15,749 bases of DNA, from the UHGV virus genome UHGV-0120055; one strand, written 5' to 3'. A model generated the notes under the pieces. The model saw nothing but the letters and a program-made list of their open reading frames with translations, searched no databases and had not been told where the DNA came from. This document shows positions 1-15,749 of the stretch, piece after piece. Both the position numbers and the translations under genes were made by a program. The stretch's first letter is position 1; every line of letters starts with the position of its first letter. The DNA comes from a virus.

Positions 1-41
1 GGGGTATTGAATTCAGCCATCAGTAAAAACAAGGTGTTCAT
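1..41 (-). CDS. 5' end of a leftward gene that continues beyond the window (partial)
   Basis: Reverse-strand ATG at 41-39 preceded by GGAGA (rc of 48-52) at 5-nt spacing; reads MNTLFLLMAEFNTP to the window edge. Not in the ORF track because it is truncated. Confidence 0.3.
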   Translation of the reverse strand, partial: MNTLFLLMAEFNT

Positions 42-77
42 AATTTTCTCCATCAAAACCGGCTGCACCCGGGAAAA

Positions 78-1402: not shown

Positions 1403-1404
1403 AA

Positions 1405-1596: not shown

Positions 1597-1597
1597 C

Positions 1598-2236
1598 TCA
1601 CTCTCCTTTGATGCGAATGCCTGCGGCGCGTGGCACATTAACTTCCACGATGCGCACTGTTGGTTTGTACATCTCAATCGCTGTCAACCAGTCAGCTCCT
1701 GTCATGCGCTTTTCCGCATCGCCATTAGTCCACTGAACCGGTACACCAATAGCCTTCATCGCGATTTCTATTTCCCCGGCAATGGCGCTTTTTCCGCAAC
1801 CAGTAAAACCAGAAACAACGACAAGAACTTCACCTTTGGCTGGTTTTATTTCCCGTGCTTCCAGTTCTGCAATGCGCTTACTTCCATCCGAGATAACACC
1901 TTCGTAATACTCACGCTGCTCGTTGAGTTTTGATTTTGCTGCTTCAAGCTCAACGCGCAGCTTCCCAACCGTAAGCGCAATATCCTCGTTCTCCTGGTCG
2001 CGGCGTTTGATGTATTGCTGGTTTCTTTCCCGTTCATCCAGAAGCGCCAGCACGGTTTCTGGTCCGGCCAGAAATTTGAAGGCGTTGAGCGCATCAATAT
2101 CCACACCGTAATCTTTAAGTTCCTGTTCACTTATCAGATCATCATCAACTGGCAACATTAACAGGCGTTCCATTGCCGGAATTGCACGTTCTGCCGCCTC
2201 ACGCAGCGCCAGTGTGTCGATGTCGATTTTGCTCAT
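1598..2236 (-). CDS. Ea22/Ead-like phage early protein
   Basis: N-terminus MSKIDIDTLALREAAERA... and a central coiled-coil-like region resemble lambda Ea22-family proteins. Start at ATG 2236-2234 with AGGAGG SD (rc of 2241-2246) and ATGA overlap with the upstream stop; the track start at 2260 has a weaker SD. Confidence 0.6.
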   Translation of the reverse strand: MSKIDIDTLALREAAERAIPAMERLLMLPVDDDLISEQELKDYGVDIDALNAFKFLAGPETVLALLDERERNQQYIKRRDQENEDIALTVGKLRVELEAAKSKLNEQREYYEGVISDGSKRIAELEAREIKPAKGEVLVVVSGFTGCGKSAIAGEIEIAMKAIGVPVQWTNGDAEKRMTGADWLTAIEMYKPTVRIVEVNVPRAAGIRIKGE

Positions 2237-2466
2237 TGTGCCTCCTCGATTTCGTCCCATTCCACCCAGGCATTCTCTCCATCAGCATCGATTTCACCTT
2301 TGTGACCGCATTTGGAACAAACGGCCTCATCACCCGCCCACAAAGAATCTTTGGTTACCGACCATCCTGTTACCTTGGCTTTGCCGTGCTGGCACTTAGG
2401 GCAATCATCAAGCCATTCGACTTCGACCGTTGAAGGACCAAATCCATGTTCAGTTCGGATGCTCAT
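2233..2466 (-). CDS. small zinc-ribbon protein (77 aa)
   Basis: Two Cys pairs (CPKC ... CSKC) in the translation; ATG 2466-2464 with AAGGAG SD (rc of 2472-2477); ATGA overlap with the upstream gene. Confidence 0.5.
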   Translation of the reverse strand: MSIRTEHGFGPSTVEVEWLDDCPKCQHGKAKVTGWSVTKDSLWAGDEAVCSKCGHKGEIDADGENAWVEWDEIEEAQ

Positions 2467-2807
2467 GACTGAACTCCTTTGCGAATCTGTTCCGCCCATT
2501 CTTCAAGGGATTTCTCTGCATATTCACCGGACAGGCCATCAATCGGATGCGATTCATTAGCTAACTCTTCTTTTGCTGACAGAATCATGCGTGTAACGTC
2601 GAAAACTTCAGCCAAAGGCTTATTGATAAATCCGTGATTGAAAGCAGCAGCAAGACGGCTTGCGGTATAGTTAATACCCTCGTTGCGAGCCTCAGCACGT
2701 ACTTCATCGAATTTACGCACCAGATACTCAGCATTTGTTTCATTCACTTTCAGATCTCGCGGTACACATTTCCCGCGAAGAAACCCTTCCATTTCGATAA
2801 CATTCAT
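2463..2807 (-). CDS. hypothetical phage early protein (114 aa)
   Basis: Track ORF 2463..2813; start placed at ATG 2807-2805, which overlaps the stop of the HD-domain gene (ATGA). No family recognised. Confidence 0.5.
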   Translation of the reverse strand: MNVIEMEGFLRGKCVPRDLKVNETNAEYLVRKFDEVRAEARNEGINYTASRLAAAFNHGFINKPLAEVFDVTRMILSAKEELANESHPIDGLSGEYAEKSLEEWAEQIRKGVQS

Positions 2808-3340
2808 GCGCATTTGCGTAACTCCGATAACTCGTTAAAACGTTCCATAAACATCCCATAGGCATGGCCTGGCGACAGTGGAATAACTTTGAACATCTCT
2901 GTTGCCGGGATACCTTCCAATACAGGCCAGAAAGAGCCATCATCAAGTCCGAGATCGCGGCGTTCGGTTGCCAGCATGATGAGATCGGCATATTTCACTG
3001 GCGTGCTCATAACCGGGGGTAACCCGTATTTCTCACGGATTACGGCGTCTATTTTTTCTTCCATCCGTTTATAGTCAGGAAGAAGGCGTTTCAGTGGAGC
3101 GGGGATGTCCTGGCAATACGCTTCTGTTGCATCATGCATTAACGCTTCAAAAGCAAATTCCTGCGGCACCAGCTGGCTGCAAAGAACCGCATGTTGGGCG
3201 ACGCTGTAGAAGTGCGAAAGATGACCGGCAAAGCGACAGATATTTGAAAGGGAAACCGCGATATCGTTAATATCGATGTCGTCTTTATTTATCTTGTCAT
3301 AATAAAAATGCTTCCCGGAAAAAGTTTTAATAAATGACAT
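2804..3340 (-). CDS. HD-domain phosphohydrolase (YfdR-like 5'-deoxynucleotidase family)
   Basis: His ... His-Asp motifs (VAQHAV, LMHDATEAY) typical of the HD superfamily; ATG 3340-3338 with GGAGA SD (rc of 3346-3350). Resembles CPS-53 prophage YfdR from memory. Confidence 0.7.
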   Translation of the reverse strand: MSFIKTFSGKHFYYDKINKDDIDINDIAVSLSNICRFAGHLSHFYSVAQHAVLCSQLVPQEFAFEALMHDATEAYCQDIPAPLKRLLPDYKRMEEKIDAVIREKYGLPPVMSTPVKYADLIMLATERRDLGLDDGSFWPVLEGIPATEMFKVIPLSPGHAYGMFMERFNELSELRKCA

Positions 3341-3467
3341 TTTGTTCTCCACGTATATGCACTGCACCGCGCTGAATTCTGGTAAAAGGAAGCCCTCACC
3401 ATTCGGTGATTATTGAGTTAATTACGTTTCCATAAATGCCCCCGCAGGGGCATTTGCAGTAATGAAA

Positions 3468-4292
3468 TCAGGCGGTGAAAGTACCAATAAAGGTTTCTAC
3501 TTTGCTGTCTTTGAATTTCTCAACAAGCAGATCACGAAATTCGTTAGCCATTTCTTCCTGCACCGCTTCCAGCTGAATAATGCGCAGAACCAGTACAGGA
3601 CGATCGCCAGTGATAATGCTGAGGCGTAATTTAAACGGACGTTCTTTCAGACCTTCAAACGGAACGCATTTAAATTCAAATGCCACTGGCATAATGTCTT
3701 TGGTCTTCGCTTCGACAGACTCCATCAGGGAGCGTTTGCCGCTGAAGTCATTATCTTCAAAATCAGCGGTCTGGTTCGCTTCAATTGTGATTTTACGGAT
3801 CGCCGCAGCCGCTTTGGTTGCCTGAATGGCGTCACCATTAGCATCAAAGCCCACAAGGTAGTCGGCCCAGTCTTCAATCCATTCTGCTAGTGACTTCTGG
3901 GAGTTACGCTCGCCGTTAACAGACAACAGGGCAGAGAACGGTGCTGTCTTTTTCAGTTTGAGAGTGGCGGTGTTATCTGCGTGACCTGGTTCATCAATAG
4001 TACCCAGGTTAAGCACACTGACTGCTCGCATATTATCGGCATCGATAAAGCAGCGGGTGCCTTCATCTGCAAGATCTTTAGAATAACGGGTAAAGTCATC
4101 GATGCTGGCAGTGGAAAGCGCACCACGGAAACGGAAGCGATTTAAATTAAATTTTTCCAGATCATGAATGCGGAAATTCTCAGGCAATGCCACAGCATCG
4201 GCACCAATCTTACTGATAATTTCATTAACACCCTGAGCAGAAATAAGGGCATGGATTTGATTAATTGCGGTTGCGTCTAAGTTCTGAGACAT
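3468..4292 (-). CDS. YfdQ-like phage protein (DUF2303-type)
   Basis: 274-aa ORF; ATG 4292 with GAGGA SD (rc of 4299-4303). Assigned by recollection of the yfdP-yfdQ-yfdR arrangement in E. coli CPS-53; not verified by search. Confidence 0.6.
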
Positions 4293-4357
4293 AATAAGTC
4301 CTCACTATATAAAGATATTCAGTGATGAGATAAATAATCAGTTAATTAAGAACGATA

Positions 4358-4720
4358 TTAATGACCTGCTGCGCGGAGTTTTCCGTCAGGTTCACCGGCA
4401 AGAGTCAGTAATTGTCCCTGGTCTTCCTGCAGAATAGTCAGGCGACCACCGCGATTGACATACATCGGCGTTTCGGTGGTGTCTTCTTCAGAAATTTTCC
4501 CGCGGTTAGTCGGGCGAACATATGAGAGTTTGTGTTTGATTTTCACACGGTTCTCATCAAATGGTTCGATTTCCAGGTTGAGTGAGACCTTACCTTTGGT
4601 TTTCGTGTTCATCACACCGGAAGCGACTTCACTGAGAACTGCGCCGATTTTGGTTTCAAATACGCCGCCGTCCAGCTCCCCGATAAATGCCTGCACATCA
4701 GTACTGCGTTCGCTAGCCAT
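4358..4720 (-). CDS. YfdP-like hypothetical protein (120 aa)
   Basis: Track ORF 4358..4951 trimmed to ATG 4720-4718 (MASERSTDVQ...) with GAGGAG SD (rc of 4727-4732); the upstream extension is low-complexity and overlaps the structured leader. Confidence 0.6.
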   Translation of the reverse strand: MASERSTDVQAFIGELDGGVFETKIGAVLSEVASGVMNTKTKGKVSLNLEIEPFDENRVKIKHKLSYVRPTNRGKISEEDTTETPMYVNRGGRLTILQEDQGQLLTLAGEPDGKLRAAGH

Positions 4721-4768
4721 TTTGCTGCTCCTCATCATATCGACCCTGCAAGGCCGATTAGTTTCTCC

Positions 4769-4903
4769 ACAAAACAGAGAAGAACACCTGCGGTGGCTGC
4801 CGCCCGGATGGATTGGGTTATGAGCCCGTCGTCCGGTGATGCTCTTCTCTGTTTTGTAAAAAGAGCGGTACCAGCCGGAAGCAAGGGTACAAACTGGTAC
4901 CGC
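4769..4903 (-). promoter_or_regulatory. structured pL-leader RNA element: boxA-like motif between two long hairpins (candidate nut/put-like site)
   Basis: Perfect 15-bp inverted repeat 4769-4783 / 4843-4857 (59-nt interior); perfect 10-bp inverted repeat 4865-4874 / 4894-4903 (19-nt loop); minus-strand CGCTCTTTTTACAAAAC (rc of 4851-4867) resembles the boxA consensus CGCTCTT(T)A. Confidence 0.3.
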
Positions 4904-5314
4904 CAAAGCAGTGGCTGTTGTGGTGGGGTTGTCACTCAGGCGTATGGTCAACCTGACAATCCGGTGTCCTCAACGGGGAAAGAGTAACCCCGCCATACTT
5001 ACCGCCGCGCCATTTCGCGGATTACCACAACGCTGAGAGCACTTAGCCAGTTACGGCACCACACTTTGTCGCGGCTCCATAAATGCCCTCATCGTTGCAC
5101 CCTGGTCTCTTCCCAGGCGTCAAACCGAATCGCCACGCTGGTTAGGCGTCTTATCAGCATCATCATTGACTTGCACATTCCGGCTACCTGGTTTGTTTGC
5201 CCGAGCAAGGAGTGGATTGTCCCCTTTAACGTCCCCAGACCGCTAACGACGCATGTGCCATACGCCGTGTTACAACCAAATTTTGTTAGTACCTTGTTTG
5301 TTTGTCTGGAAAGA

Positions 5315-5367
5315 AAGATAAAATGAAGTTGCGCATTATGCAAGTGTTTTTGTTGCGAGATATGCAA
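5315..5367 (-). promoter_or_regulatory. OL/pL-like region: two 15-bp operator-like sites overlapping a leftward promoter
   Basis: TTGCGCATTATGCAA (5329-5343) and TTGCGAGATATGCAA (5353-5367) share the pattern TTGCG-N5-TGCAA with the OR site at 6136-6150. Candidate minus-strand -35 TTGCAT (rc of 5338-5343) and -10 TATCTT (rc of 5315-5320) at 17-bp spacing. Confidence 0.4.
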
Positions 5368-5380
5368 TTTAAAGGGTAAT

Positions 5381-5402
5381 GAAAAGCCACCTTTGGGTGG
5401 CT
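5381..5402 (-). terminator. putative intrinsic terminator downstream of the repressor gene
   Basis: 7-bp stem AGCCACC/GGTGGCT with a 4-nt loop (5385-5402), followed on the minus strand by UUUC AUU; about 20 nt after the repressor stop. The U-tract is short. Confidence 0.35.
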
Positions 5403-5422
5403 AATTGATGAGGAGGTAAGGG

Positions 5423-6115
5423 TTAATTGTGTCGCTTAATGGTTTGTGACTGGCTGATTAAGACCTTTCCAAAGACCATAAACCGGTGTTCATTTTCGCT
5501 GGTAATTCCCCATTCACGGTAAATCTGGTTATCAGAAATCACCAGTAGTTTGTCAGGTATCATTTGCAGTCGTTTGACATAAATTTTATCATCAAAACCA
5601 AATACATAGATACCATCTCCATCAAACTGATTGATACTGACATCAACGAAGATGAGATCTCCTGGCTCAATGGTTGGACACATACTGTCCCCACGAACGT
5701 TGATAACTTTAATGTGATTGGCTGGCCGTCCACCAAACATCGATACAGCATTATCAGTTCTGTATTCAATGGCATGAATCACATCAATGACATCACCGCC
5801 CTGGATAAGGCCATTTCCCGCACTGGCACTGACATCCAGCATTTCAATACGGAATACATCCTTCACCTGCGCAACATCCTCACTAATACTGTTTTTACAT
5901 ACAGTATTACTTTTGAAGTCTGAGGTAAAGAGATCAGCAATATCAACACCTAAGCTCTTGGCAATATTACTCAGGGCTTGTTCAGTGAATTGTTTCTGCT
6001 TACCTGTTTCCAGGCGTGAGATATTCGCCGCATCCACTCCTATTGCTTCAGCGAGATCGGCGATTTTCATGTTCTTCGCCTGGCGAAGTTGTCTGACTCG
6101 GTTTCCTATGTTCAT
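5423..6115 (-). CDS. CI-type prophage repressor (HTH_XRE N-terminus, S24 LexA-like autopeptidase C-terminus)
   Basis: N-terminal HTH (KIADLAEAIGVDAANISRLE), Ala-Gly cleavage-site candidate (SASAGNG), Ser/Lys dyad context (RGDSM ... VKRL). ATG 6115 has no SD and sits 7 nt from a -10-like hexamer, consistent with a leaderless transcript as for lambda cI from pRM. Confidence 0.85.
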   Translation of the reverse strand: MNIGNRVRQLRQAKNMKIADLAEAIGVDAANISRLETGKQKQFTEQALSNIAKSLGVDIADLFTSDFKSNTVCKNSISEDVAQVKDVFRIEMLDVSASAGNGLIQGGDVIDVIHAIEYRTDNAVSMFGGRPANHIKVINVRGDSMCPTIEPGDLIFVDVSINQFDGDGIYVFGFDDKIYVKRLQMIPDKLLVISDNQIYREWGITSENEHRFMVFGKVLISQSQTIKRHN

Positions 6116-6212
6116 GCGTTTATTACATTTCTTTATTGCGCGTTAAGCAAATCAACTTGCGCAAAATATTTGCGTGAAATAATATGCTCATCACGCAATA
6201 TGTGGAGGTTAT
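6116..6212. promoter_or_regulatory. OR-like region with divergent promoters (pRM-like leftward, pR-like rightward) and operator half-sites
   Basis: Rightward: -35 TTGCGC (6157-6162), 17-bp spacer, -10 TAATAT (6180-6185), then GGAGG SD and cro ATG at 6213. Leftward: -35 TTGCTT (rc of 6145-6150), 17-bp spacer, -10 TGTAAT (rc of 6122-6127). Operator-like TTGCGCGTTAAGCAA (6136-6150), palindrome TTGCGCAA (6157-6164), weaker ATGCTCATCACGCAA (6184-6198). Confidence 0.5.
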
Positions 6213-6473
6213 ATGCAATCACCATTACGGAATGTGCGTAAGGCGCACGGATTTACTTTGCAGCATGTTGCTGCTGGCGTTCAGGTCAATCCAGCGACGC
6301 TGAGTCGTATTGAAAGACTGGAACAAATTCCATCTATCGATCTTGCAGAACGTCTGGCCAATTTTTTTAAGGGTGAAATCAGCGAAATGCAGATTCTTTA
6401 TCCGGCACGTTTTCAATCTAGCCAAAACCAGAATGGGTTTAAACCACAGGAACAGGAGGTAAGCCGTGGGTAA
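6213..6473 (+). CDS. Cro-like HTH_XRE regulator
   Basis: 86-aa ORF diverging from the repressor; HTH (FTLQHVAAGVQVNPATLSRIE); GGAGG SD at 6204-6208. Confidence 0.75.
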   Translation: MQSPLRNVRKAHGFTLQHVAAGVQVNPATLSRIERLEQIPSIDLAERLANFFKGEISEMQILYPARFQSSQNQNGFKPQEQEVSRG

Positions 6474-7017
6474 TCATCACTGGAAAGTGGAAAAACAGCC
6501 TGAGTGGTACGTGAAAGCTGTCAGAAAAACCATCGCGGCGTTGCCAGGGGGTTACGCTGAAGCTGCTGAGTGGCTGGATGTTACAGAGAACGCTTTATTC
6601 AACCGCCTTCGTGCAGATGGCGATCAGATTTTCCCGCTGGGATGGGCAATGATTTTACAGCGTGCTGCTGGCACTCACTACATTGCGGATGCTGTCGCAC
6701 AGTCTGCTGGTGGGGTGTTTGTATCGCTTCCTGAAATTGAGGAAGTAGAGAACGCAGATATAAACCAGCGCCTGCTGGAAGTCATCGAACAGATCGGGAG
6801 TTACTCAAAGCAGATTCGTTCGGCAATCGAAGATGGGGTAGTGGAGCCACACGAGCAGACAGCAATTAATGATGAATTGTATCTGTCAATTTCGAAGCTC
6901 CAGGAGCATGCGGCACTGGTCTACAAAATTTTCTGCGCTCCAGAAAAGAGTGACGCCCGCGAGTGTGCAGCTCCGGGCGTCGTGGCGTTTTGTGTCTGTG
7001 GAGAAACTAACGCATGA
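6466..7017 (+). CDS. CII-like / CP76-family putative regulatory protein
   Basis: 183-aa ORF directly after cro; GTG start 6466 with AGGAGG SD (6454-6459). Position and size match CII/CP76 or YdaT-like proteins, but the family call is from memory and tentative. Confidence 0.55.
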   Translation: MGNHHWKVEKQPEWYVKAVRKTIAALPGGYAEAAEWLDVTENALFNRLRADGDQIFPLGWAMILQRAAGTHYIADAVAQSAGGVFVSLPEIEEVENADINQRLLEVIEQIGSYSKQIRSAIEDGVVEPHEQTAINDELYLSISKLQEHAALVYKIFCAPEKSDARECAAPGVVAFCVCGETNA

Positions 7018-7162
7018 ACAGTTTAACGGCAAATAACCGTTTGTCGCAACAGCTGGTGGTCAGTGTCGCTGCACACCTGTTGTTACGGCATGAATGCAGA
7101 TTACCAAATCACCTGGCTGTAAGTAACCACAGAGAACTTTACCTGACTGTGGGGGGCGAGTT

Positions 7163-7342
7163 GTGCAGGAACTTAACCGCTGGTTTCGTGACGGAAGAGG
7201 ACTTTATGTTCATGTTATTCGTTGGGAGCCAGAAACACAGCGCGTTATCTATCTTCGCAAAGACTACCCGCATGAGTGCTTTAGTCCTTTGTGGAAATTC
7301 AGGCGTGATTTTGTTGAGTGTGAAGGACCACCAGCACATTGA
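7163..7342 (+). CDS. small hypothetical protein (59 aa, GTG start) in an alternative frame inside long ORF 7014..8165
   Basis: Frame-2 translation VQELNRWFRDGRGLYVHVIRWEPETQRVIYLRKDYPHECFSPLWKFRRDFVECEGPPAH has protein-like composition; a G6 run (7151-7156) lies just upstream and could serve as SD. Below the ORF-track length cutoff. Confidence 0.3.
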   Translation: MQELNRWFRDGRGLYVHVIRWEPETQRVIYLRKDYPHECFSPLWKFRRDFVECEGPPAH

Positions 7343-7619
7343 TTCTGCCATTCCGGGACGTTACACTGTTCAGGCACCTTATAAAGCGGGTGCCGGGATT
7401 GGCGTCCTGAAATTGATTACTGAGCATAACCGCGCTCATGCGGTTTTTTCGTGTCATGAGCATTGCTACGCCCAAATTATGGTGTGGCGTACAGGGCCGA
7501 CTTCGGTCGGGCCGGGTTCGGTAGTCTCCGGTAACGCCAACCCTGTACGTCTCACCACCTCTGTGATTGGCGTCCCATGTGGTGAGTTTTCTAAAAAACT
7601 GACTACCGGGGCTGTCACC

Positions 7620-8165
7620 ATGACTACTCTCCCAACCATCTCTCAACCTGAAATTGCCATCGTTGATGGTCAGGCTGTTACATCTTCTTTGGCTGTTGCT
7701 GACTTCTTCTCTAAACGTCATGACGATGTACTGAAAAAGATCCGCACGCTTGAATGCTCAGCATCATTCACTGCCCGCAATTTTTCGGTGAGTGATTACA
7801 CTGATTGCACAGGTCGCAAACTTCCTTGCTACCAAATCACACGCGACGGTTTTGCGTTTCTTGCTATGGGTTTCACGGGTAAACGTGCTGCCCAGTTCAA
7901 AGAGGCATACATCAATGCCTTTAACCAGATGGAGAAACAGCTTTCAAAGCCCTCTGTACCGAGCGACGTTGCACATAACGCCAGCGTTCTCTATTCCTAC
8001 ATTTCATCAATTCATCAGGTCTGGCTGCAGCAGCTTTATCCCATGTTGGCAAAAGCCGAATCCCCGCTGGCTGTAAGTCTGTATGACCGCATCAACGACG
8101 CGGCGCTACTGGCCAGTCTCATAAATTTGTCGCTGAACCCTTCAGAGGTAAGGGGGCGCAAATGA
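7620..8165 (+). CDS. Rha-family phage regulatory protein (start uncertain)
   Basis: Translation from ATG 7620 (MTTLPTISQPEIAIVDGQ...) contains the Rha-domain signature (KRHDDVLKKI ... YQITRDGFAFLAMGFTGKRAAQFKEAYINAF). The same frame is open upstream to ATG 7014, but those 202 residues are compositionally atypical (see findings). Confidence 0.65.
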   Translation: MTTLPTISQPEIAIVDGQAVTSSLAVADFFSKRHDDVLKKIRTLECSASFTARNFSVSDYTDCTGRKLPCYQITRDGFAFLAMGFTGKRAAQFKEAYINAFNQMEKQLSKPSVPSDVAHNASVLYSYISSIHQVWLQQLYPMLAKAESPLAVSLYDRINDAALLASLINLSLNPSEVRGRK

Positions 8166-8386
8166 TCCGGAATATTTTCAAACGGTTTACCAATCATACT
8201 TTCCGTTGTCCTCGTCCGGGTCAGTGGTACACCACGCCTGCAGGGCATGTTCTACGTGTTAGCCTGGTTGACCGTGAATGCCAGAAGGTGATTTGTGAAC
8301 CGCTGGGCCGTAATTACCGCGTCAGTATGCCGCTTATAGCCTTTCGCTCCGGAAAAAACATGAAGCATCTCGGAGGTGCGGCATGA
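8162..8386 (+). CDS. hypothetical protein (74 aa)
   Basis: ATGA overlaps at both ends (8162-8165 with Rha stop; 8383-8386 with the O-like start) suggest a translationally coupled real gene. No family recognised. Confidence 0.5.
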   Translation: MIRNIFKRFTNHTFRCPRPGQWYTTPAGHVLRVSLVDRECQKVICEPLGRNYRVSMPLIAFRSGKNMKHLGGAA

Positions 8387-9375
8387 GCCTGTTAATGACA
8401 TCCCAGCCCATTGTGATAAATCGTGATCTTGCATGCCGTATTGGTCTGAATGAGGCAATTGTGTTGCAGCAGCTTCATTACTGGCTGAATGAAACGAATT
8501 CAGGCACTGAGCATGGCGGAATTCGCTGGGTTTATAACACGACAGAACAGTGGCTGGAGCAGTTTCCGTTCTGGTCAGAGTCCACTCTGAAACGCACATT
8601 TGCAAGCCTGAAATCACTTGGGGTTTTGCGTCGCGAGCAACTCAATAAATCGAAGCGTGACATGACCAACTTCTACACGATCAACTATGAAAGTGAGCTT
8701 TTAGAAGAGGTCAAAGTGAACGAATCCATCAGGTCAAAATGCACCTCTCCATCGGGTCAAAGTGACCTGATGGATGAGCGCAAAATGACACGATCCATTG
8801 GTTCAAAACGACACGCTGTCATCGGGTCAAAATGGCCCAATGATCTTACAGAGAATACAACAGAGATTACTACAGAGAATAAAACCTCTTCTCGTCCGGA
8901 CGCTTCGCAACCGGACACGCAGATGGCTGAACAGGATTTTTTAACTCGCCATCCTGATGCGGTTGTATTCAGCCCTAAAAAGCGCCAGTGGGGAACGCAG
9001 GATGATTTGACCTGCGCACAGTGGCTCTGGAAAAAAATCATCGCTCTGTACGAGCAGGCCGCCGAATGTGACGGCGAAGTGGTACGTCCTAAAGAACCGA
9101 ACTGGACAGCCTGGGCAAACGAAATTCGCCTGATGTGTGTACAGGATGGGCGTACTCACAAACAAATCTGCGAGATGTACAGCCGCGTCAGCCGCGATCC
9201 GTTCTGGTGCCGTAACGTGCTCAGCCCGTCGAAGCTGCGGGAAAAATGGGATGAGCTTTCCCTGCGCTTATCGCCGTCCGTCAGCACGTACACAGAAAAA
9301 CGCGAAGACCCGTACTTCAAAGCCAGTTACGACAACGTGGACTACAGCCAGATCCCGGCAGGATTCAGGGGGTGA
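8383..9375 (+). CDS. replication initiator / replisome organizer (lambda O-like)
   Basis: N-terminal region (LNEAIVLQQLHYWLNE ... WSESTLKRTFASLKSLGVL) resembles phage replisome-organizer N-domains; GGAGG SD at 8372-8376; an iteron array lies in the linker-coding region as in lambda O. Confidence 0.75.
   Translation: MSLLMTSQPIVINRDLACRIGLNEAIVLQQLHYWLNETNSGTEHGGIRWVYNTTEQWLEQFPFWSESTLKRTFASLKSLGVLRREQLNKSKRDMTNFYTINYESELLEEVKVNESIRSKCTSPSGQSDLMDERKMTRSIGSKRHAVIGSKWPNDLTENTTEITTENKTSSRPDASQPDTQMAEQDFLTRHPDAVVFSPKKRQWGTQDDLTCAQWLWKKIIALYEQAAECDGEVVRPKEPNWTAWANEIRLMCVQDGRTHKQICEMYSRVSRDPFWCRNVLSPSKLREKWDELSLRLSPSVSTYTEKREDPYFKASYDNVDYSQIPAGFRG
8709..8890 (+). repeat. origin-like iteron array plus A-rich direct repeats inside the O-like gene
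   Basis: Four 17-bp iterons TCCATC(A/G)GGTCAAA(A/G)TG at 8725-8741, 8748-8764, 8794-8810, 8818-8834 and a partial copy at 8709-8719; iteron 2 extends into a palindrome (...GTGACCTGATGGA); then ACAGAGA x3 in an A-rich tract (8845-8885). Confidence 0.6.
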
Positions 9376-9377
9376 TT

Positions 9378-9866
9378 ATGAGTATTTTGAATGAAGTTCA
9401 GAAATTCATTGAAGCCCATCCGGGGTGTACTTCCGGAGACATTGCGGATGCTTTTGCAGGTTACTCACGGCAGCGCGTTCTGCAGTCAGCAAGCAAGTTA
9501 CGTCAGAGTGGGCGTGTGGCTCACCGTTGTGAAGGAGATACACGCAGACATTTCCCGCGCCTGACTGAGAGAGCGCAGGAACCGGAACCACAACCAGTTC
9601 GTGAAACCAGACCTGTGCGCAATTTCTATGTCGGCACTAACGATCCCCGTGTGATTTTGTGCCTGACCCGTCAGGCGGAAGAACTGGAGTCCAGGGGCTT
9701 ATACCGTCGTGCTGCAACCGTGTGGATGGCGGCATTCCGTGAAAGCCACTCCCAGCCAGAACGAAACAATTTTCTGGCGCGTCGTGAGCGGTGCTTACGG
9801 AAAAGCAGCAAGCGCGCTGCATCGGGTGAAGAGTGGTATCTGTCAGGGAATTACGTGGGGGCTTAA
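9378..9866 (+). CDS. putative transcriptional regulator (wHTH-like N-terminus; PerC-like C-terminal motif)
   Basis: ATG 9378 with GGGGG SD (9368-9372). C-terminal LESRGLYRRAATVWMAAF recalls the PerC/Pch motif; tentative. Confidence 0.55.
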   Translation: MSILNEVQKFIEAHPGCTSGDIADAFAGYSRQRVLQSASKLRQSGRVAHRCEGDTRRHFPRLTERAQEPEPQPVRETRPVRNFYVGTNDPRVILCLTRQAEELESRGLYRRAATVWMAAFRESHSQPERNNFLARRERCLRKSSKRAASGEEWYLSGNYVGA

Positions 9867-10519
9867 TGAGTAATAAATATTGCCAGGCGCTGGTGGAACT
9901 GCGGAACAAACCAGCCCATGAACTGAAGGAAGTGGGCGATCAGTGGCGCACGCCGGACAACATTTTCTGGGGAATTAACACCCTGTTTGGCCCGTTTGTT
10001 CTGGATCTGTTCACTGACGGTGATAACGCCAAATGTGCCGCGTATTACACGGCGGAAGACAACGCGCTTGCGCATGACTGGTCAGAACGTCTTGCGGAGC
10101 TTAAAGGTGCTGCCTTTGGTAATCCCCCATACAGCCGCGCCAGTCAGCATGAGGGGCAATACATCACCGGCATGCGTTACATCATGAAACATGCCAGTGC
10201 CATGCGTGATAAGGGCGGGCGCTATGTTTTCCTGATCAAAGCTGCCACCAGCGAAGTGTGGTGGCCGGAAGATGCAGATCATATTGCTTTTATTCGCGGG
10301 CGTATTGGTTTTGAACTGCCTGTCTGGTTTATCCCGAAAGACGAGAAGCAGGTACCGACAGGAGCTTTTTTCGCTGGTGCTATTGCTGTTTTTGACAAGA
10401 CCTGGAAGGGACCGGCAATCAGCTACATCGGGCGCGATGAACTTGAGGCATGTGGTGAGGCGTTTCTGGCGCAGGTTCGCCAGCAGGCGGAAAAACTGGT
10501 CAGGGAGATGGCGGCATGA
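9866..10519 (+). CDS. phage Dam-family DNA N6-adenine methyltransferase
   Basis: NPPY motif (GNPPYSR) and upstream WRTPDNIF ... FVLDLFTD pattern typical of phage Dam-family methyltransferases; ATG 9866 overlaps the upstream TAA (TAATG); GGGGG SD at 9856-9860. Confidence 0.8.
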   Translation: MSNKYCQALVELRNKPAHELKEVGDQWRTPDNIFWGINTLFGPFVLDLFTDGDNAKCAAYYTAEDNALAHDWSERLAELKGAAFGNPPYSRASQHEGQYITGMRYIMKHASAMRDKGGRYVFLIKAATSEVWWPEDADHIAFIRGRIGFELPVWFIPKDEKQVPTGAFFAGAIAVFDKTWKGPAISYIGRDELEACGEAFLAQVRQQAEKLVREMAA

Positions 10520-10842
10520 CGACGTTAACTCAATGCCAGCAGCAGGTGCTGGATATGCTGATTTCTTATCAGAAAGAACGTGGCTTCCCGCCAACCAATC
10601 AGGAGGTGGCAACCATGCTGGGATACCGTTCAGTGAATGCAGCGGTGGAGCATCTTCGCGCACTGGAGAAAAAAGGCGTCATCACGATAAAGCGTGGCGT
10701 GGCCCGGGGGATAACGCTTCATACCGCGGTGAAGGACGACGACAGCGAGGCGGTCGGGATTATCCGCGCACTGCTTGCCGGTGAGGAAAACGCAAGGCTG
10801 CGTGCAACCCACTGGTTACATGAGAGGGACCTGAAAGTATGA
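10516..10842 (+). CDS. LexA N-terminal DNA-binding-domain-like protein (no peptidase domain)
   Basis: MTTLTQCQQQVLDMLISYQKERGFPPTNQEVATMLGYRSVNAAVEHLRALEKKGVI closely parallels the LexA winged-helix N-domain ([56 protein letters not shown], from memory); only 108 aa with no S24 domain; ATGA overlaps at both ends. Confidence 0.7.
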   Translation: MTTLTQCQQQVLDMLISYQKERGFPPTNQEVATMLGYRSVNAAVEHLRALEKKGVITIKRGVARGITLHTAVKDDDSEAVGIIRALLAGEENARLRATHWLHERDLKV

Positions 10843-11228
10843 AGCTGATCCTGCCTTTTCCGCCCAGCGTGAACACGTACTGGCGACACCCCAACAAAGG
10901 GGCGTTTGCTGGTAAGAGTCTGATAAGCGCGGCGGGGCGAAAATTCCAGAGCGCGGCGTGCGCAGCAATAGTTGAGCAGTTACGTCGTCTGCCGAAACCA
11001 ACGTCGGCACCTGCTTCAGTGGAGATCGTGTTGTTTCCTCCGGATAACCGGATCCGCGATCTGGACAACTATAACAAGGCGCTGTTTGACGCCCTGACCC
11101 ACGCGGGTGTGTGGGAAGACGACAGTCAGGTGAAAAGAATGCTGGTGGAGTGGGGACCGGTTATCCCGGAAGGGAAGGTCGAGATCACTATCAGTAAGTA
11201 CGAGAAAACGGCGGGTGCAGCCGCCTGA
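10839..11228 (+). CDS. rusA: RusA Holliday-junction resolvase
   Basis: MKLILPFPPSVNTYW ... DLDNYNKALFDALTHAGVWEDD matches the RusA family signature; common in lambdoid nin regions. Confidence 0.85.
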   Translation: MKLILPFPPSVNTYWRHPNKGAFAGKSLISAAGRKFQSAACAAIVEQLRRLPKPTSAPASVEIVLFPPDNRIRDLDNYNKALFDALTHAGVWEDDSQVKRMLVEWGPVIPEGKVEITISKYEKTAGAAA

Positions 11229-11247
11229 TCAAGAGGAGAAACGAAGT

Positions 11248-12057
11248 ATGAATAATCTGATGGTCATTGATGGTATTGAAGTTCGTCGTGATGCTTATGG
11301 GCGTTACAGCCTGAACGATCTGCATCGCGCAGCAGTAGCATCTGGTGCAAATGCCAGAACCAAGGAGCCGGGAAAGTTTCTTTCCAGCCAACAAACTGTT
11401 GAGCTTGTTCATGAATTGACCAACACCCAGAATTTGGGTGTTGACCCGGTGAGTGTGATTCATGGGGGAAATGAACGGGGAACGTATGTCTGCAAGGAAC
11501 TGGTGTATGCCTATGCAATGTGGATCAGCCCGTCATTCCATCTGAAGGTGATCCGTACTTTCGATATGGTAACCAGCGCACCGGAAAAATTATCCGGACA
11601 GGCTGCTGACAAGATGCAGGCTGGCGTGATCCTGCTGGACTTTATGCGCCGGGAGTTAAACCTGTCTAACTCTTCAGTGCTTGGTGCCTGTCAGAAACTC
11701 CAGGAGGCTGTTGGCTTACCGAATCTGGCACCGCGCTATGCCATTGATGCTCCTGCTGACGCGCCTGATGGCTCAAGCCGCCCCACGCTATCATTGAGTG
11801 CACTGCTGAAGCAGTATGGTATCCGCCTGACAGCTAATCAGGCATATCACCAGATGGCGAAGCTGGGGATCGTTGAACAACGTGAACGATACAGCCGCAC
11901 TGCGATTAACAACATCAAAAAATTCTGGTCGCTGACGGCGAAAGGCTGCATGTTCGGCAAGAACATCACCAGTCCCGCAAATCCGCGCGAGACGCAGCCG
12001 CATTTCTTCGAATCCCGATTCCCTGAGCTGTTAAAGCTGCTCGATACCGTTCATTGA
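11248..12057 (+). CDS. KilA-N domain protein
   Basis: ATG 11248 with AGAGGAG SD (11232-11238); N-terminus MNNLMVIDGIEVRRDAYGRYSLNDLHRAA ... GTYVCKELVYAYAMWISPSFHLKV matches the KilA-N pattern; C-terminal half unassigned. Confidence 0.7.
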   Translation: MNNLMVIDGIEVRRDAYGRYSLNDLHRAAVASGANARTKEPGKFLSSQQTVELVHELTNTQNLGVDPVSVIHGGNERGTYVCKELVYAYAMWISPSFHLKVIRTFDMVTSAPEKLSGQAADKMQAGVILLDFMRRELNLSNSSVLGACQKLQEAVGLPNLAPRYAIDAPADAPDGSSRPTLSLSALLKQYGIRLTANQAYHQMAKLGIVEQRERYSRTAINNIKKFWSLTAKGCMFGKNITSPANPRETQPHFFESRFPELLKLLDTVH

Positions 12058-12058
12058 G

Positions 12059-13054
12059 GTGACCGTGAGAGCACTACTGACTCCTGAAATTGCCCCGCGT
12101 ATGGGGATCGTATTGTTCAGGCCAGGTTCAGAGCTGATGCCCCTGTTTATGCAGGGGCGTGTCCTGCTGGAGCCTGAGCCGGAACGTTATTCATCTTTCG
12201 CCAGTGGTGCCGTTCCGGCGGCATCACAACCGCTGGCGGATGATCCTGCCGTTCGGGCCGTGTTCCGCAATGAGGCAGTGATTCGTCGTGCTGGTGGCGT
12301 GGAATGTCTTGAAAGCTGGTTACTTCGTGAAAAAGGCTGCCAGTGGCCTCATTCCGACTGGCACAGCGAGAACATGACCACAATGCGACACGCGCCGGGC
12401 GCAATCCGTCTGTGCTGGCACTGCGATAACCAGCTGCGCGATCAGTTCACGGAACGGCTGGAATCAATGGCAACGGATAACTGTGCCCGCTGGGTGTTAT
12501 CTGTTGTGCGTCGGGATCTCGGTTTTGATGATAGTCACGTTGTGACAATGCCGGAACTGTGCTGGTGGCTGGTTCGTAATGATCTGGCGGATGCCTTACC
12601 GGAAAGCGCAGCCCGTAAGGCACTGAGATTACCGAAGCCTGTTGTGCCGTCTGTCACCCGGGAAAGTGACCTTGTGCCTTCGGTTCCTGCCACCAGCATC
12701 ATCCAGGATAAAGCGAAAAAGGTGCTGGCGCTGAAAGTGGATCCGGAGTCGCCGGAGTCTTTTATGTTACGCCCAAAACGTCGCCGCTGGGTTAATGAAA
12801 AGTACACGCGCTGGGTTAAGACGCAGCCGTGCGCATGTTGTGGAAAGCCTGCTGATGATCCCCACCACCTGATAGGTCACGGTCAGGGTGGAATGGGAAC
12901 AAAAGCGCATGACCTCTTTGTGTTGCCTTTGTGCAGAAAGCATCACGACGAGCTGCATGCGGATACCGTGGCATTTGAAGAGAAGTATGGTTCCCAGCTG
13001 GAGCTGATATTTCGTTTTATCGATCGTGCGCTGGCAATAGGCGTACTGGCGTAA
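12059..13054 (+). CDS. DUF968-family protein with C-terminal Cys/His (HNH-like) motif
   Basis: C-terminus PCACCGKPADDPHHL ... CRKHHDELH; resembles YdfU/DUF968 proteins found upstream of Q in Qin-like prophages. Start is GTG 12059 or 12065 (TGAGG SD at 12055-12059 favours 12065). Confidence 0.65.
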   Translation: MTVRALLTPEIAPRMGIVLFRPGSELMPLFMQGRVLLEPEPERYSSFASGAVPAASQPLADDPAVRAVFRNEAVIRRAGGVECLESWLLREKGCQWPHSDWHSENMTTMRHAPGAIRLCWHCDNQLRDQFTERLESMATDNCARWVLSVVRRDLGFDDSHVVTMPELCWWLVRNDLADALPESAARKALRLPKPVVPSVTRESDLVPSVPATSIIQDKAKKVLALKVDPESPESFMLRPKRRRWVNEKYTRWVKTQPCACCGKPADDPHHLIGHGQGGMGTKAHDLFVLPLCRKHHDELHADTVAFEEKYGSQLELIFRFIDRALAIGVLA

Positions 13055-13067
13055 GTGGAGAACGAGC

Positions 13068-13820
13068 ATGAACCTTGAAGCCTTACCGAAATATTACTCC
13101 CCGAAATCTCCAAAATTGAGCGATGACGCACCGGCGACAGGCTCTGGTGGTTTAACAATTACGGATGTAATGGCTGCGCAGGGTATGGTGCAGTCGAAAG
13201 CACCGCTTGGGTTTGCCTTATTCCTGGCAAAAGTTGGTGTTCAGGATCCTCAGTTTGCGATTGAAGGTCTGCTCAATTACGCGATGGCACTGGATAACCC
13301 GACATTGAACAAATTGAGTGAAGAAACCCGGTTACAGATCATCCCTTACCTTGTGAACTTTGCCTTTGCTGATTATTCCAGGTCTGCGGCAAGTAAGGCT
13401 CGCTGTGAGCATTGTGCTGGTACTGGATTTCATAATGTATTGCGCGAAGTGGTGAAACACTCCAGAAGCGGGGAATCTGTTATCAAGGAAGAGTGGGTGA
13501 AGGAACTGTGTCAGCATTGTCATGGTAAGGGAGAAGTCAGCACAGCGTGCAGAGGGTGTAAGGGTAAAGGTATTGTCCTGGATGAAAAAAGAACCCGGCT
13601 TCATGGCACGCCTGTTTATAAGGTTTGTGGGCGTTGCAATGGAAACCGGTTTAGCCGTTTACCAACCACACTGGCGCGGCTTCATGTCCAGAAGCTGGTA
13701 CCAGACCTGACGGATTATCAGTGGTACAAAGGATATGCAGATGTCATTGATAAACTGGTTACAAAGTGCTGGCAGGAAGAAGCATATGCAGAGATACAAT
13801 TGAGAAAGGTGACAAGATAA
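13068..13820 (+). CDS. late-gene antiterminator Q (phage 82 / Qin-type)
   Basis: 250 aa with Cys clusters (CEHCAGTG ... CQHCHGKG ... CRGCKGKG ... CGRCNG) and followed by a promoter plus strong terminator; GTGGAG SD at 13055-13060. Family by recollection. Confidence 0.7.
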   Translation: MNLEALPKYYSPKSPKLSDDAPATGSGGLTITDVMAAQGMVQSKAPLGFALFLAKVGVQDPQFAIEGLLNYAMALDNPTLNKLSEETRLQIIPYLVNFAFADYSRSAASKARCEHCAGTGFHNVLREVVKHSRSGESVIKEEWVKELCQHCHGKGEVSTACRGCKGKGIVLDEKRTRLHGTPVYKVCGRCNGNRFSRLPTTLARLHVQKLVPDLTDYQWYKGYADVIDKLVTKCWQEEAYAEIQLRKVTR

Positions 13821-13851
13821 ATGGTTTTCGCCGAAGATGACGACATGATGC

Positions 13852-13880
13852 TTGCGTTTTTCAAAAAATATGGATAAGAT
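13852..13880 (+). promoter_or_regulatory. candidate Q-dependent late promoter (pR'-like)
   Basis: -35 TTGCGT (13852-13857), 17-bp spacer, -10 TAAGAT (13875-13880), about 30 nt after the Q stop and about 45 nt before the terminator hairpin. Confidence 0.4.
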
Positions 13881-13926
13881 TTTTACAACGATGGGCTTTG
13901 TATGTCTACCGTTGATAAGATTTAAG

Positions 13927-13951
13927 AACCCGCCACTGAGCGGGTTTTTTT
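13927..13951 (+). terminator. rho-independent terminator (tR'-like)
   Basis: Stem AACCCGC / GCGGGTT (13927-13933 / 13940-13946) with loop CACTGA, followed by a T-run through 13951. Confidence 0.65.
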
Positions 13952-14073
13952 GTACCTGTAAACTTGGTGCAGTACAGTAAACACGCTGGTGGTCGTGAAT
14001 ACTGACTTTTTATCTTGCTGGCTTTTTAGACAAGAGTTATTGGTATGTCATGTTAACAAGAAGGGAAAAAGAC

Positions 14074-14277
14074 ATGCTAAAACAGCAAGATATGACAGAA
14101 ACCGCCGCCGCAGTCCTTCATTTCTTACCTGCTGACAAGTGGGTAACGCCACGCATGATGACGAGAACTACCGGAGTAAGCGAAGCCCGGTGCCAGTTAA
14201 TACTGACTCAGTTAGTTCTGGCGGGTCTGGCGAAGGATAACGGCGGGTACGGGAATAAATTCAGACGCTGCCAGTAA
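14074..14277 (+). CDS. small hypothetical protein (67 aa; possible winged-helix)
   Basis: Track ORF 14050..14277; internal ATG 14074 has AAGGGA SD (14061-14066). Segment TTGVSEARCQLILTQLVLAGLA is HTH-like. Confidence 0.4.
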   Translation: MLKQQDMTETAAAVLHFLPADKWVTPRMMTRTTGVSEARCQLILTQLVLAGLAKDNGGYGNKFRRCQ

Positions 14278-14427
14278 TGGCGGTTTCCTGCTGTGAAAAT
14301 GGGCGGCTGGTGGGTGTTGGTAGCACCTGCCAGCCATTCGCTCATGCTTACTGGTCACAAGCGAACCACGGCCCACTGCTTTAGCGCAAAAGCAGAGTGA
14401 GCCTACCAGAGTTACGCTTACTGATCC

Positions 14428-15477
14428 ATGAAAAACACTGTGAAAATAAACAGTGTTGATTTAATCAACGCTGATTGCCTGCATTTTATTCAGTCCCTGC
14501 CTGATGATTCCATTGACCTGATTGTTACCGATCCGCCGTACTTCAAGGTGAAACCCAACGGCTGGGACAATCAGTGGAAAGGGGACGAAGATTACCTTAA
14601 GTGGCTGGACCACTGTCTGGCGCAGTTCTGGCGGGTGTTAAAACCTGCAGGAAGCCTTTACCTGTTCTGTGGACATCGCCTGGCATCTGATATCGAAATC
14701 ATGATGCGTGAACGCTTCAGTGTGCTGAACCATATTATCTGGGCGAAGCCGTCCGGACGCTGGAACGGATGCAACAAGGAAAGCCTGCGGGCGTATTTCC
14801 CCGCCACAGAGCGCATTCTGTTCGCGGAACATTATCAGGGGCCGTATCGTCCGAAAGATGCCGGGTATGAGGCGAAGGGCAGGGAACTGAAACAGCATGT
14901 GATGACCCCGCTGATTGCTTACTTTCGTGATGCGCGCGCTGCCCTGGGGATAACGGCAAAACAGATTGCAGATGCCACAGGAAAGAAAAACATGGTGTCG
15001 CACTGGTTCAGTGCCAGTCAGTGGCAGTTGCCGAACGAAAGCGATTATCTGAAATTACAGGCGCTGTTTGCCCGGGTGGCAGAAGAGAAGCATCAGCGCG
15101 GTGAACTGGAAAAGCCCCACCACCAGCTGCTGAAGACGTATACTTCACTGAACCGGCAGTATGCGGAACTGCAGAGTGAATATAAGCATCTGCGGCGGTA
15201 TTTTGGCGTGACGGCGCAGGTGCCGTACACGGATGTGTGGACACATAAACCGGTGCAGTTCTATCCCGGGAAACATCCGTGCGAAAAACCGGCAGAAATG
15301 CTGCAGCAGATAATCAGCGCGAGCAGTCGTCCTGGTGACATGGTGGCGGATTTCTTCATGGGTTCTGGCTCAACCATAAAGGCGGCTATGGCGCTTGGGC
15401 GTCGTGCAATTGGTGTTGAGCTGGAGACCGGACGTTTTGAGCAGACAGTCAGGGAAGTTCAGGATTTAATCGTTTGA
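14428..15477 (+). CDS. DNA methyltransferase, beta-class N6-adenine/N4-cytosine (N6_N4_Mtase-like)
   Basis: Motif IV DPPY near the N-terminus (LIVTDPPYF) and motif I FxGxG near the C-terminus (DFFMGSGST), i.e. beta-class order; no adjacent restriction-endonuclease-like ORF in the window. Confidence 0.8.
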   Translation: MKNTVKINSVDLINADCLHFIQSLPDDSIDLIVTDPPYFKVKPNGWDNQWKGDEDYLKWLDHCLAQFWRVLKPAGSLYLFCGHRLASDIEIMMRERFSVLNHIIWAKPSGRWNGCNKESLRAYFPATERILFAEHYQGPYRPKDAGYEAKGRELKQHVMTPLIAYFRDARAALGITAKQIADATGKKNMVSHWFSASQWQLPNESDYLKLQALFARVAEEKHQRGELEKPHHQLLKTYTSLNRQYAELQSEYKHLRRYFGVTAQVPYTDVWTHKPVQFYPGKHPCEKPAEMLQQIISASSRPGDMVADFFMGSGSTIKAAMALGRRAIGVELETGRFEQTVREVQDLIV

Positions 15478-15526
15478 AACGGATGAGATTGCAGAATTAA
15501 TTACGCACCATTATTATTCTGCTCCC

Positions 15527-15602
15527 GGCCCTTTAGCTCAGTGGTGAGAGCGAGCGACTCATAATCGCCAGGTCGCTGGTTCAAATCCAGCAAGGGCCAC
15601 CA
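15527..15602 (+). tRNA. tRNA-Met or tRNA-Ile2 (anticodon CAU)
   Basis: Hand-folded cloverleaf: acceptor GGCCCTT/AAGGGCC, D-stem GCTC/GAGC, anticodon loop CTCATAA, T-stem GCTGG/CCAGC with T-loop TTCAAAT, discriminator A and encoded CCA. Met versus lysidine-modified Ile cannot be distinguished by eye. Confidence 0.85.
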
Positions 15603-15609
15603 TCACATA

Positions 15610-15686
15610 CCGCCATTAGCTCATCAGGACAGAGCGCCAGCCTTCGAAGCTGGTTGCGCGGGGGGCGGGTCCCCGATGGCGGTCCA
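15610..15686 (+). tRNA. tRNA-Arg (anticodon UCG) with atypical T-loop
   Basis: Acceptor CCGCCAT/ATGGCGG, D-stem GCTC/GAGC, anticodon stem CCAGC/GCTGG with loop CTTCGAA, T-stem CGGGG/CCCCG, encoded CCA. The T-loop is GGCGGGT, lacking the canonical T54/Psi55/A58 positions. Confidence 0.6.
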
Positions 15687-15699
15687 TTATCGGTATTCA

Positions 15700-15749
15700 G
15701 CGTTGTTAGCTCAGCCGGACAGAGCAATTGCCTTCTAAGCAATCGGTCA
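15700..15749 (+). tRNA. tRNA-Arg (anticodon UCU), 3' part truncated by window end
   Basis: Acceptor 5' arm GCGTTGT, TA, D-stem GCTC/GAGC, anticodon stem ATTGC/GCAAT with loop CTTCTAA; the sequence ends in the variable region. Confidence 0.6.

Follow-up and report, generated by a model that had tools for sequence, protein, structure and literature searches.

The window, by which we mean the whole stretch of 15,749 nucleotides analyzed here, comes from the virus genome UHGV-0120055. Towards its 3′ end lie the gene of the late-gene antiterminator Q, a tR′-like intrinsic terminator, a small ORF, a second hairpin, a structured leader, a methylase gene and a tRNA cluster of the ileZ/argN/argO type (15527–15749), all on the same strand (Table 1). 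The methylase gene is thus located between tR′ and the tRNA cluster, as stated in the original prediction, and is preceded by two hairpins, a strong terminator and a weaker, terminator-like one. A consensus promoter/terminator scan returned no terminator in this region, a result that we set aside because folding reveals a clear hairpin 3′ of Q; a rho-independent terminator is annotated at the equivalent offset 3′ of Q in phage SfV, where a terminator is also annotated 3′ of the methylase gene. RefSeq names the Q gene of a ~99%-identical prophage "antitermination protein" and the Dam-family gene of the early region "phage N-6-adenine-methyltransferase". The Dam-family protein (PF05869) and the methylase (PF01555) belong to different families, so the prophage does carry two unrelated methyltransferases, as had been proposed.

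Table 1. Features of the methylase locus and related genes, with their positions in the window.
Feature	Coordinates	Strand	Description or evidence
Dam-family methylase, early region	9866–10519	+	PF05869 Dam, E = 9.7e-46
DUF968 ORF	12059–13054		Marginal HNHc_6 match, 26.9 bits vs 26.6 cut-off
Q late-gene antiterminator, 250 aa	13068–13820	+	PF03589 Antiterm, E = 6.7e-53
tR′-like intrinsic terminator, GC hairpin + U7	13924–13956	+	RNAfold dG −14.0 kcal/mol, then TTTTTTT
Small ORF, 67 aa	14074–14277 (open from 14050)	+	phrog_331, E = 3e-26
Second hairpin, contains the small-ORF stop codon, then short U-rich run	14264–14292	+	dG −11.9 kcal/mol
Structured 5′ leader of the methylase, SD-less, ~140 nt	14285–14427	+	Covariance model, covariation
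Methylase ORF	14428–15477	+	349 codons, predicted M.EcoGII-family N6-adenine methyltransferase
tRNA, CAT anticodon (RefSeq tRNA-Ile)	15527–15602	+	ARAGORN, Rfam, RefSeq
tRNA Arg TCG	15610–15686	+	ARAGORN, Rfam, RefSeq
Third tRNA (Arg), cut by the window end	15700–15749	+	ARAGORN, Rfam, RefSeq

The methylase ORF opens at its earliest possible start, ATG 14428, with an in-frame TGA two codons 5′ of it. Its product contains a DPPY motif (residues 35–38) and an F-M-G-S-G (FxGxG) motif (residues 310–314), both of which are unchanged throughout an alignment of the family (n = 47). An N-terminal DPPY followed by a C-terminal FxGxG is the beta-class order, and the enzyme therefore belongs to the beta class. 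The Pfam profile PF01555 (N6_N4_Mtase) gives a single match spanning residues 29–340 (E = 2.4e-43), in which some 150 residues have no counterpart among the 221 positions of the profile. An intact beta-class DPPY...FxGxG methyltransferase of 349 residues had been predicted, and ORF, motifs and Pfam match all bear this out. When a structural model of the protein was compared to the PDB with Foldseek, the best matches were the beta-class enzymes CcrM, M.BceJIV, MboIIA and RsrI, the similarity being confined to the core; solved beta-class enzymes were retrieved with E values of 1e-15 to 1e-12 by Foldseek and of 2e-25 and below by phmmer.

The methylase is identical at 320 of 349 positions (91.7%), over a gap-free alignment, to M.EcoGII, the non-specific adenine methyltransferase of E. 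coli O104:H4, which likewise counts 349 residues (PMC5778455). The M.EcoGII sequence was taken from Table S1 of the paper describing SUPREM (PMC11551740), which was machine-read with few errors; the gene that we recovered from the O104:H4 chromosome NZ_CP136552.1 agrees with this table save for evident reading errors. Of the 29 substitutions between the two proteins, twelve affect residues 1–62 and eight the second linker helix (residues 235–254). M.EcoGII methylates adenine in any context in double-stranded DNA, single-stranded DNA and, less well, RNA, and it also acts on DNA:RNA hybrids in vitro; up to 99% of the adenines of duplex DNA are modified, and many restriction enzymes are blocked (PMC5778455). 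The same authors named phage 1720a-02 as the carrier of "a very similar MTase" and reported that constitutive expression of M.EcoGII slows growth, while the native lysogen does not express it (PMC5778455). M.EcoGI, which is identical to M.EcoGII at 333 of 349 positions (95%), is likewise reported to be non-specific (PMC4659465), and SUPREM, a reconstructed ancestor that shares at least 72% identity with the methylase of the window, is still non-site-specific (PMC11551740). The methylase is thus bracketed by non-specific relatives, M.EcoGII and M.EcoGI on one side and SUPREM on the other, and it probably modifies adenine in any sequence context. The expectation of an uncharacterized enzyme with a target motif to be found is contradicted by the 91.7% identity to M.EcoGII: judging by its sequence, the enzyme is already known and is an M.EcoGII orthologue at the usual prophage position.

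[quoted passage not shown] Our AlphaFold (AF2) model of the methylase, a monomer computed from a shallow alignment with a moderate mean pLDDT of 69.8, places the helices of the insert at residues 146–173, 177–184, 190–194, 204–223 and 234–255, with the same layout as published for M.EcoGII; confidence is low at residues 104–128 and 258–286, which overlap the reported dimer-interface regions. According to this model, the long insert noticed between the two motifs is the published target-recognition domain, i.e. a helix-turn-helix-containing helical bundle with its charged linkers. The HMM search of the insert that had been recommended was run: it returned a sub-threshold HTH_3 match at residues 167–195 and no other domain, the comparison of the insert alone (residues 105–272) to the Pfam HMMs giving nothing beyond this match and coiled-coil noise. 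These features fit a family-specific module rather than a borrowed domain. The core of the recognition bundle differs from that of M.EcoGII at two positions only (S191P and A212S), and residue 179 is Q, as across the M.EcoGII clade, a state associated with low RNA activity (PMC11551740).

At the nucleotide level, prophages of two complete E. coli chromosomes carry a gene that is 100% identical to the methylase gene. Of 5426 complete E. coli genomes, 2662 contain homologues, a single genome having as many as eight. Phage matches are best for 1720a-02 and a large number of Stx2a/c/d-converting phages. The order found in the window is that of the M.EcoGII locus of O104:H4, where DUF968, Q, the small ORF, a leader of ~140 nt, the methylase and tRNAs Ile/Arg/Arg follow one another, and it is common to SfV, mEp460, Morganella IME1369_02, Hafnia yong2 and many Stx2 phages. 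Phage 933W, in which Q/pR′ leads straight to the tRNAs, has no methylase gene, which indicates that the cassette is optional. Note that the StxS small RNA and the 933W-type late region are not applicable here, since they belong to another Q/pR′ module that is devoid of the methylase. With a dN/dS of 0.11–0.14 against three phage alleles, the methylase is under purifying selection. Its gene is mosaic, the N-terminal third being of the Stx2c-phage type and the middle being almost identical to the 1720a-02 type (dS 0.06).

No restriction endonuclease was found among the 20 window ORFs scanned with Pfam, which comprise most of the longest ORFs per stretch of the window and a 75-aa ORF. A prophage with full annotation, that of strain 2017.17.03CC, has none either; its methylase gene is 100% identical to that of the window, and its flanks are ~99% identical. 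For these two sets, the statement that the methylase has no partner endonuclease stands, and the locus is devoid of the adjacent cognate nuclease by which a Type II restriction-modification system would be recognized.

The 150 nt that separate the small ORF from the methylase ATG are as conserved as coding sequence, and a covariance model built for this region matches positions 14285–14436 with a score of 170 bits. This leader lies 5′ of the ATG from Escherichia to Yersinia, Providencia and Lonsdalea (80 loci in one-per-species genomes), a range over which the methylase protein is 63–66% identical. The model detects exactly one leader per locus, on the methylase strand and abutting the methylase start, and no copy in 933W. 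In Xenorhabdus and Photorhabdus, which have methylase homologues of ~65% identity, the scores are marginal, at or below significance, so that the leader does not extend to every member of the wider methylase family. A pattern scan of IMG/VR retrieved 120 contigs, and the methylase gene lies 60–62 nt 3′ of the pattern in all 118 contigs that could be assessed, i.e. those with enough downstream sequence. Searches with Rfam 15 gave nothing at the gathering score in the window and nothing at E ≤ 1 over 14285–14436; a literature search for the leader sequence gave no match, and keyword searches on the regulation of late-region methylases returned nothing relevant. The leader is thus possibly new, a point to be kept separate from the methylase itself, which is known.

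Two mutually exclusive folds can be drawn for the leader. Fold A consists of four helices (numbering of the columns of alignment A3): P1 (18–22/95–99), the hairpin P1a (23–36/44–56), P2 (58–63/83–88) and P3 (100–106/114–120). Over 47 sequences, 91% of the cells are paired and 15 pairs display compensatory changes, a level reached by none of 500 shuffles; sliding the pairing partners lowers the pairing to 30–45%. For instance, pair 60:86 in P2 (14343:14367 in the window) is CG in 26 sequences, AU in 9, UA in 6 and UG in 4, and its variation is seen again in an independent viral set. G-U pairs are frequent, which assigns the leader to the methylase strand. Fold B fits the sequences just as well: 93% of the cells are paired, and helix P1′, 99.6% paired, connects GGUCAcAAGCG with CGCUUacUGAUC (14357–14367 with 14412–14423), ending 2 bases before the AUG. 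The energy of Fold B is below that of Fold A in 44 of the 47 sequences. A leader peptide was considered and rejected: the ORF that starts at an invariant AUG is as short as 3 codons in some sequences and longer than 43 in others, and it stops after 7 codons in 23 of 47 sequences, indicating that it is non-coding.

The small ORF that precedes the leader probably starts at ATG 14074, the start favored by the alignment of its homologues (MLKQQDMT), and belongs to a PHROG family of unknown function. Its AF2 model (pLDDT 84.7) is a single winged-helix domain with the topology H-H-H-strand-strand, for which Foldseek returned only generic winged helices (Zalpha, IclR, SelB; E about 4e-3); some relatives are labeled as TrmB/IscR/DprA-like winged helices, and the ORF has no significant sequence match in the PDB and no PADLOC match. 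Of 134 non-redundant leaders, 108 have a homologue of the small ORF just 5′ of them; in 88 of the 134 loci, a GC-rich hairpin followed by a T run, as defined by strict criteria, directly precedes the leader.

The methylase start was described as having a weak or absent SD, which is what we find. The predicted duplex with the anti-SD has an energy of −2.4 kcal/mol, whereas the values for the Q, Dam and RusA genes of the window are −6.3 to −8.4 kcal/mol. The absence is conserved: none of the 47 aligned leaders contains a four-base SD core (GGAG, GAGG, AGGA or AAGG) in the 16 nt nearest the start, and a bare GGA is present in 7 of the 47. The leader thus combines features expected of a translational operator or a riboswitch, namely covarying helices, a strict association with the 5′ end of the methylase gene and an alternative pairing that would occlude the start. 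We read it as a putative element that controls, in cis, the translation of a toxic enzyme, although it may instead enhance translation rather than repress it. More specifically, we put forward, as a possibility that we rate somewhat below an even chance, that at least 170 Enterobacterales loci share an undescribed RNA of ~140 nt that replaces the ribosome-binding site and, through its two exclusive folds, acts as a translational switch timing methylase synthesis, this switch being riboswitch-like or protein-operated, possibly via the winged-helix protein. As for the effector, we can only guess at SAM or SAH, the methylase itself or the product of the winged-helix ORF.

The pR′ promoter of Stx phages is active at all times, but its transcripts terminate at tR′ until Q acts (PMC7547250). 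The consensus scan detected no promoter above chance 5′ of the methylase gene (2 sites found vs 2.1 expected), and the gene order suggests that methylase expression would be late and Q-dependent. The terminators, the lack of an SD and the leader would all accord with silence of the gene in the lysogen. Relatives present a similar picture: in ST131, a 99% homologue (M.EcoMV) was judged inactive, with no expression detected by RT-PCR under the conditions tested (PMC4659465), and homologues of O111 strains at 92–93%, listed as "nonspecific", yielded no motif (PMC6602927). The term "moron" applied to the gene is fair insofar as the gene is optional accessory cargo of the late region, which 933W lacks; the sense of a gene expressed in the lysogen finds no support, given the absence of an above-chance promoter, the terminators and the silence of the homologues. 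The comparison of the methylomes of a lysogen and a cured strain, proposed earlier as a means to define the target motif, is expected to show nothing, so that the lack of a motif is the expected outcome for this methylase; given a non-specific enzyme and a silent lysogen, both this experiment and the use of "no new motif" as a refutation would mislead.

Altogether, we consider it very probable that the gene encodes an orthologue of M.EcoGII and M.EcoGI, i.e. a non-specific m6A methyltransferase that is carried as cargo of a late, Q-dependent cassette, protects the progeny against restriction and is silent in the lysogen. This proposal combines the identity, architecture, synteny, purifying selection and leader structure described here with the non-specific activity, toxicity and lysogen silence reported in the literature, Q-dependence, the anti-restriction role and regulation by the leader being what we infer. 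The enzyme would use SAM to convert adenine to N6-methyladenine essentially without sequence preference, its Rossmann core being split into residues ~1–135 and 260–349, between which a positively charged helical module would grip the nucleic acid without reading the bases. The optional cassette, made up of the small winged-helix ORF, the leader and the methylase as its main cargo, would open the late operon, following Q and the terminator and preceding the tRNAs and lysis genes. In a lysogen, transcription would end at the terminator, and any read-through message would have no ribosome-binding site, with the bases before the AUG able to pair, so that the toxic enzyme would remain unmade. Upon induction, the Q-modified polymerase would pass the terminator, and the methylase would then hypermethylate replicating phage DNA ahead of packaging; as a result, progeny DNA would resist m6A-sensitive restriction of Types I, II and III in the next host. 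An anti-restriction role, which we favor for the methylase of the window, was likewise suggested by the authors who described M.EcoGII (PMC5778455). Densely methylated DNA is, conversely, the target of m6A-dependent Type IV nucleases, and the benefit should therefore depend on the host.

The original prediction implied a different enzyme, namely an orphan methyltransferase that recognizes a specific target motif of its own and exerts epigenetic control in the lysogen. Such a function would be in keeping with the site specificity of most PF01555 enzymes and of those with the closest structures (CcrM, M.BceJIV and RsrI all read defined sites), and 29 substitutions do separate the methylase from M.EcoGII. 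Yet the overall identity is with a proven non-specific enzyme and the recognition bundle is near-identical to that of the latter; moreover, non-specificity is kept even at ~72% identity, as seen with SUPREM, homologues give no methylation signal in lysogens, and the gene lies behind terminators and is devoid of an SD. We therefore regard sequence specificity as very unlikely. We give next to no credence to the idea that the methylase is the modification component of a restriction-modification system and that the nuclease is encoded beyond the window or has escaped recognition, for instance as the DUF968 protein. The best PADLOC model for the methylase is indeed "Type II methyltransferase" (MTase_II, E = 5e-161), and the DUF968 ORF exceeds the HNHc_6 cut-off, if marginally; however, the neighbors of the methylase gene in the 2017.17.03CC prophage are Q, tRNAs, lysis genes and head genes, with no nuclease, the DUF968 ORF has no PADLOC match and its gene adjoins Q in O104:H4 and other phages as well, and a methylase acting on every adenine neither needs nor can match a site-specific nuclease.

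The silence of the homologues in lysogens and the missing SD could also betray a decaying or inactive prophage remnant, all the more so as a PerC-like neighbor gene is marked as a pseudogene in a related ~99%-identical prophage. This is hard to reconcile with a full-length ORF, invariant motifs and a dN/dS as low as that given above, or with the fact that viable phages carry the same gene; in addition, the absence of an SD is conserved along with a covarying leader, which argues for regulation rather than decay, and we hold the remnant hypothesis to be extremely unlikely. Another alternative concerns the target rather than the enzyme: during lytic growth, the methylase might act mainly on RNA or on the host chromosome as part of a host takeover, instead of protecting phage DNA. 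The activity of M.EcoGII on single-stranded RNA and DNA:RNA hybrids in vitro and the harm caused to the cell by its constitutive expression are compatible with this scheme, but the RNA activity of M.EcoGII is far below its DNA activity (V0 of 0.12 vs 11.1; Table S3, PMC11551740) and the methylase has Q179, the low-RNA-activity state, which renders a host takeover unlikely. Protection of progeny DNA by a non-specific, late-expressed methylase thus remains our preferred reading.

If this reading is correct, it has consequences for annotation, since databases call this protein a "site-specific DNA-methyltransferase" when a near-identical relative has no site, and for motif hunts in lysogen methylomes, where this methylase would leave none to be found. 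As about half of the complete E. coli genomes carry a copy, the phage DNA that exits these strains may be broadly protected from restriction, and this matters for how Stx phages and other lambdoid phages spread. The leader switch, if true, would explain how an enzyme that is toxic, and is widely used as a chromatin-footprinting reagent, is naturally silenced, and it would add a class of regulatory RNA from very well-studied bacteria.

Compared to known systems, the locus is closest to that of M.EcoGII (GenBank EGT69837.1, E. coli O104:H4 C227-11): the two enzymes have the same motifs, and their leaders share ~86% nucleotide identity. M.EcoGI, M.EcoMV (ST131) and M.Eco95JB1I/II (O111) are, similarly, encoded by prophages, their lack of specificity being either predicted or demonstrated, and they give no methylome signal in lysogens, but they are other alleles than the methylase of the window and reside in other prophages. 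As for the leader, conserved multi-helix 5′ leaders with alternative pairings beside the start codon are found in the SD-less leader of E. coli rpsA and in riboswitch expression platforms. CcrM (6pbd), M.BceJIV (8urk), M.RsrI (1eg2) and M.MboIIA (1g60) share the split Rossmann core and the motif order with the methylase; in contrast, they are only 18–22% identical to it, each of them reads defined sites, and their recognition modules are unrelated to its helical insert. Finally, the promiscuous adenine methylases of the Hia5 type (Drozdz et al., cited in PMC5778455) are phage- or prophage-borne like the methylase of the window, but their description as alpha-class enzymes, with the reversed motif order, sets them apart from it and points to an independent origin.

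The start of the methylase gene, which encodes an M.EcoGII-family N6-adenine methyltransferase, lacks a Shine-Dalgarno sequence and is directly abutted by a conserved, covarying RNA. The alignment of this leader is compatible with two mutually exclusive folds, in one of which pairing reaches to 2 nt before the AUG. At every locus that yielded the leader, it abutted the methylase start; in IMG/VR this holds for 118 of 118 assessable contigs. No family in Rfam 15 matches it, and our literature searches found no description of it.

Coordinates and supporting features of the elements discussed
Feature	Position	Strand	Remarks
CI-like repressor	5423-6115		part of the module differing from the E. coli 2017.17.03CC prophage
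isrK	7374-7450	+	Rfam match above gathering score, 59 bits
C4 antisense RNA	7475-7562	+	Rfam match above gathering score, 78 bits
DUF968 protein	12059-13054	+	adjoins Q
Small ORF	14074-14277	+	67 aa; phrog_331, function unannotated
Structured leader RNA	14285-14427	+	~140 nt; conservation, covariation

Positions 14422-14425, 2-5 nt ahead of the methylase ATG, form a Dam site (GATC) that is invariant in 43 of the 47 aligned leaders (alignment columns 150-153). It may simply belong to the start-proximal helix. A Dam-family methylase is also encoded by this prophage.

Upstream of the leader, the small ORF ends with a stop codon that falls within the loop of a hairpin resembling a terminator (14264-14292), and a homologue of this ORF is found upstream of 108 out of 134 non-redundant leaders. 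Its product is predicted to fold as one winged-helix domain and, speculatively, might bind nucleic acid and regulate the cassette formed by the small ORF, the leader and the methylase. Further upstream, behind the Q antiterminator gene, a textbook hairpin followed by a U7 run is present at 13924-13956, the place equivalent to that of an annotated terminator in SfV. A consensus terminator scan of 13700-15749 nevertheless returned zero terminators; its negatives are not reliable alone. The DUF968 protein on the other side of Q has a marginal HNH-nuclease-like Pfam match (HNHc_6, 26.9 bits for a cut-off of 26.6); it was weighed as a nuclease partner of the methylase and rejected.

Compared with the prophage of E. 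coli 2017.17.03CC, the window is ~99% identical over 1-3451 and 8879-15749. The intervening immunity/early-regulation module (3452-8878) differs, which is ordinary lambdoid mosaicism; besides the repressor, it contains DUF2303 and Rha/Ash genes, and the isrK and C4 matches lie within or adjoining the Ash/Rha-domain ORF (7014-8165) of the early region. The methylase gene (14428-15477) is itself mosaic relative to the three phage alleles compared (L001, L004 and L005): approximately its first third agrees with the Stx2c-phage allele (dN 0.010) and its central third is near-identical to the 1720a-02/Stx2a allele (dS 0.06), a pattern of matches that implies intragenic recombination. Finally, the whole cassette is absent from the archetypal Stx2 phage 933W (record 20205-21462), where the tRNAs and stx2 come directly after Q/pR'. 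This makes the cassette an optional module, associated with Q types other than that of 933W.
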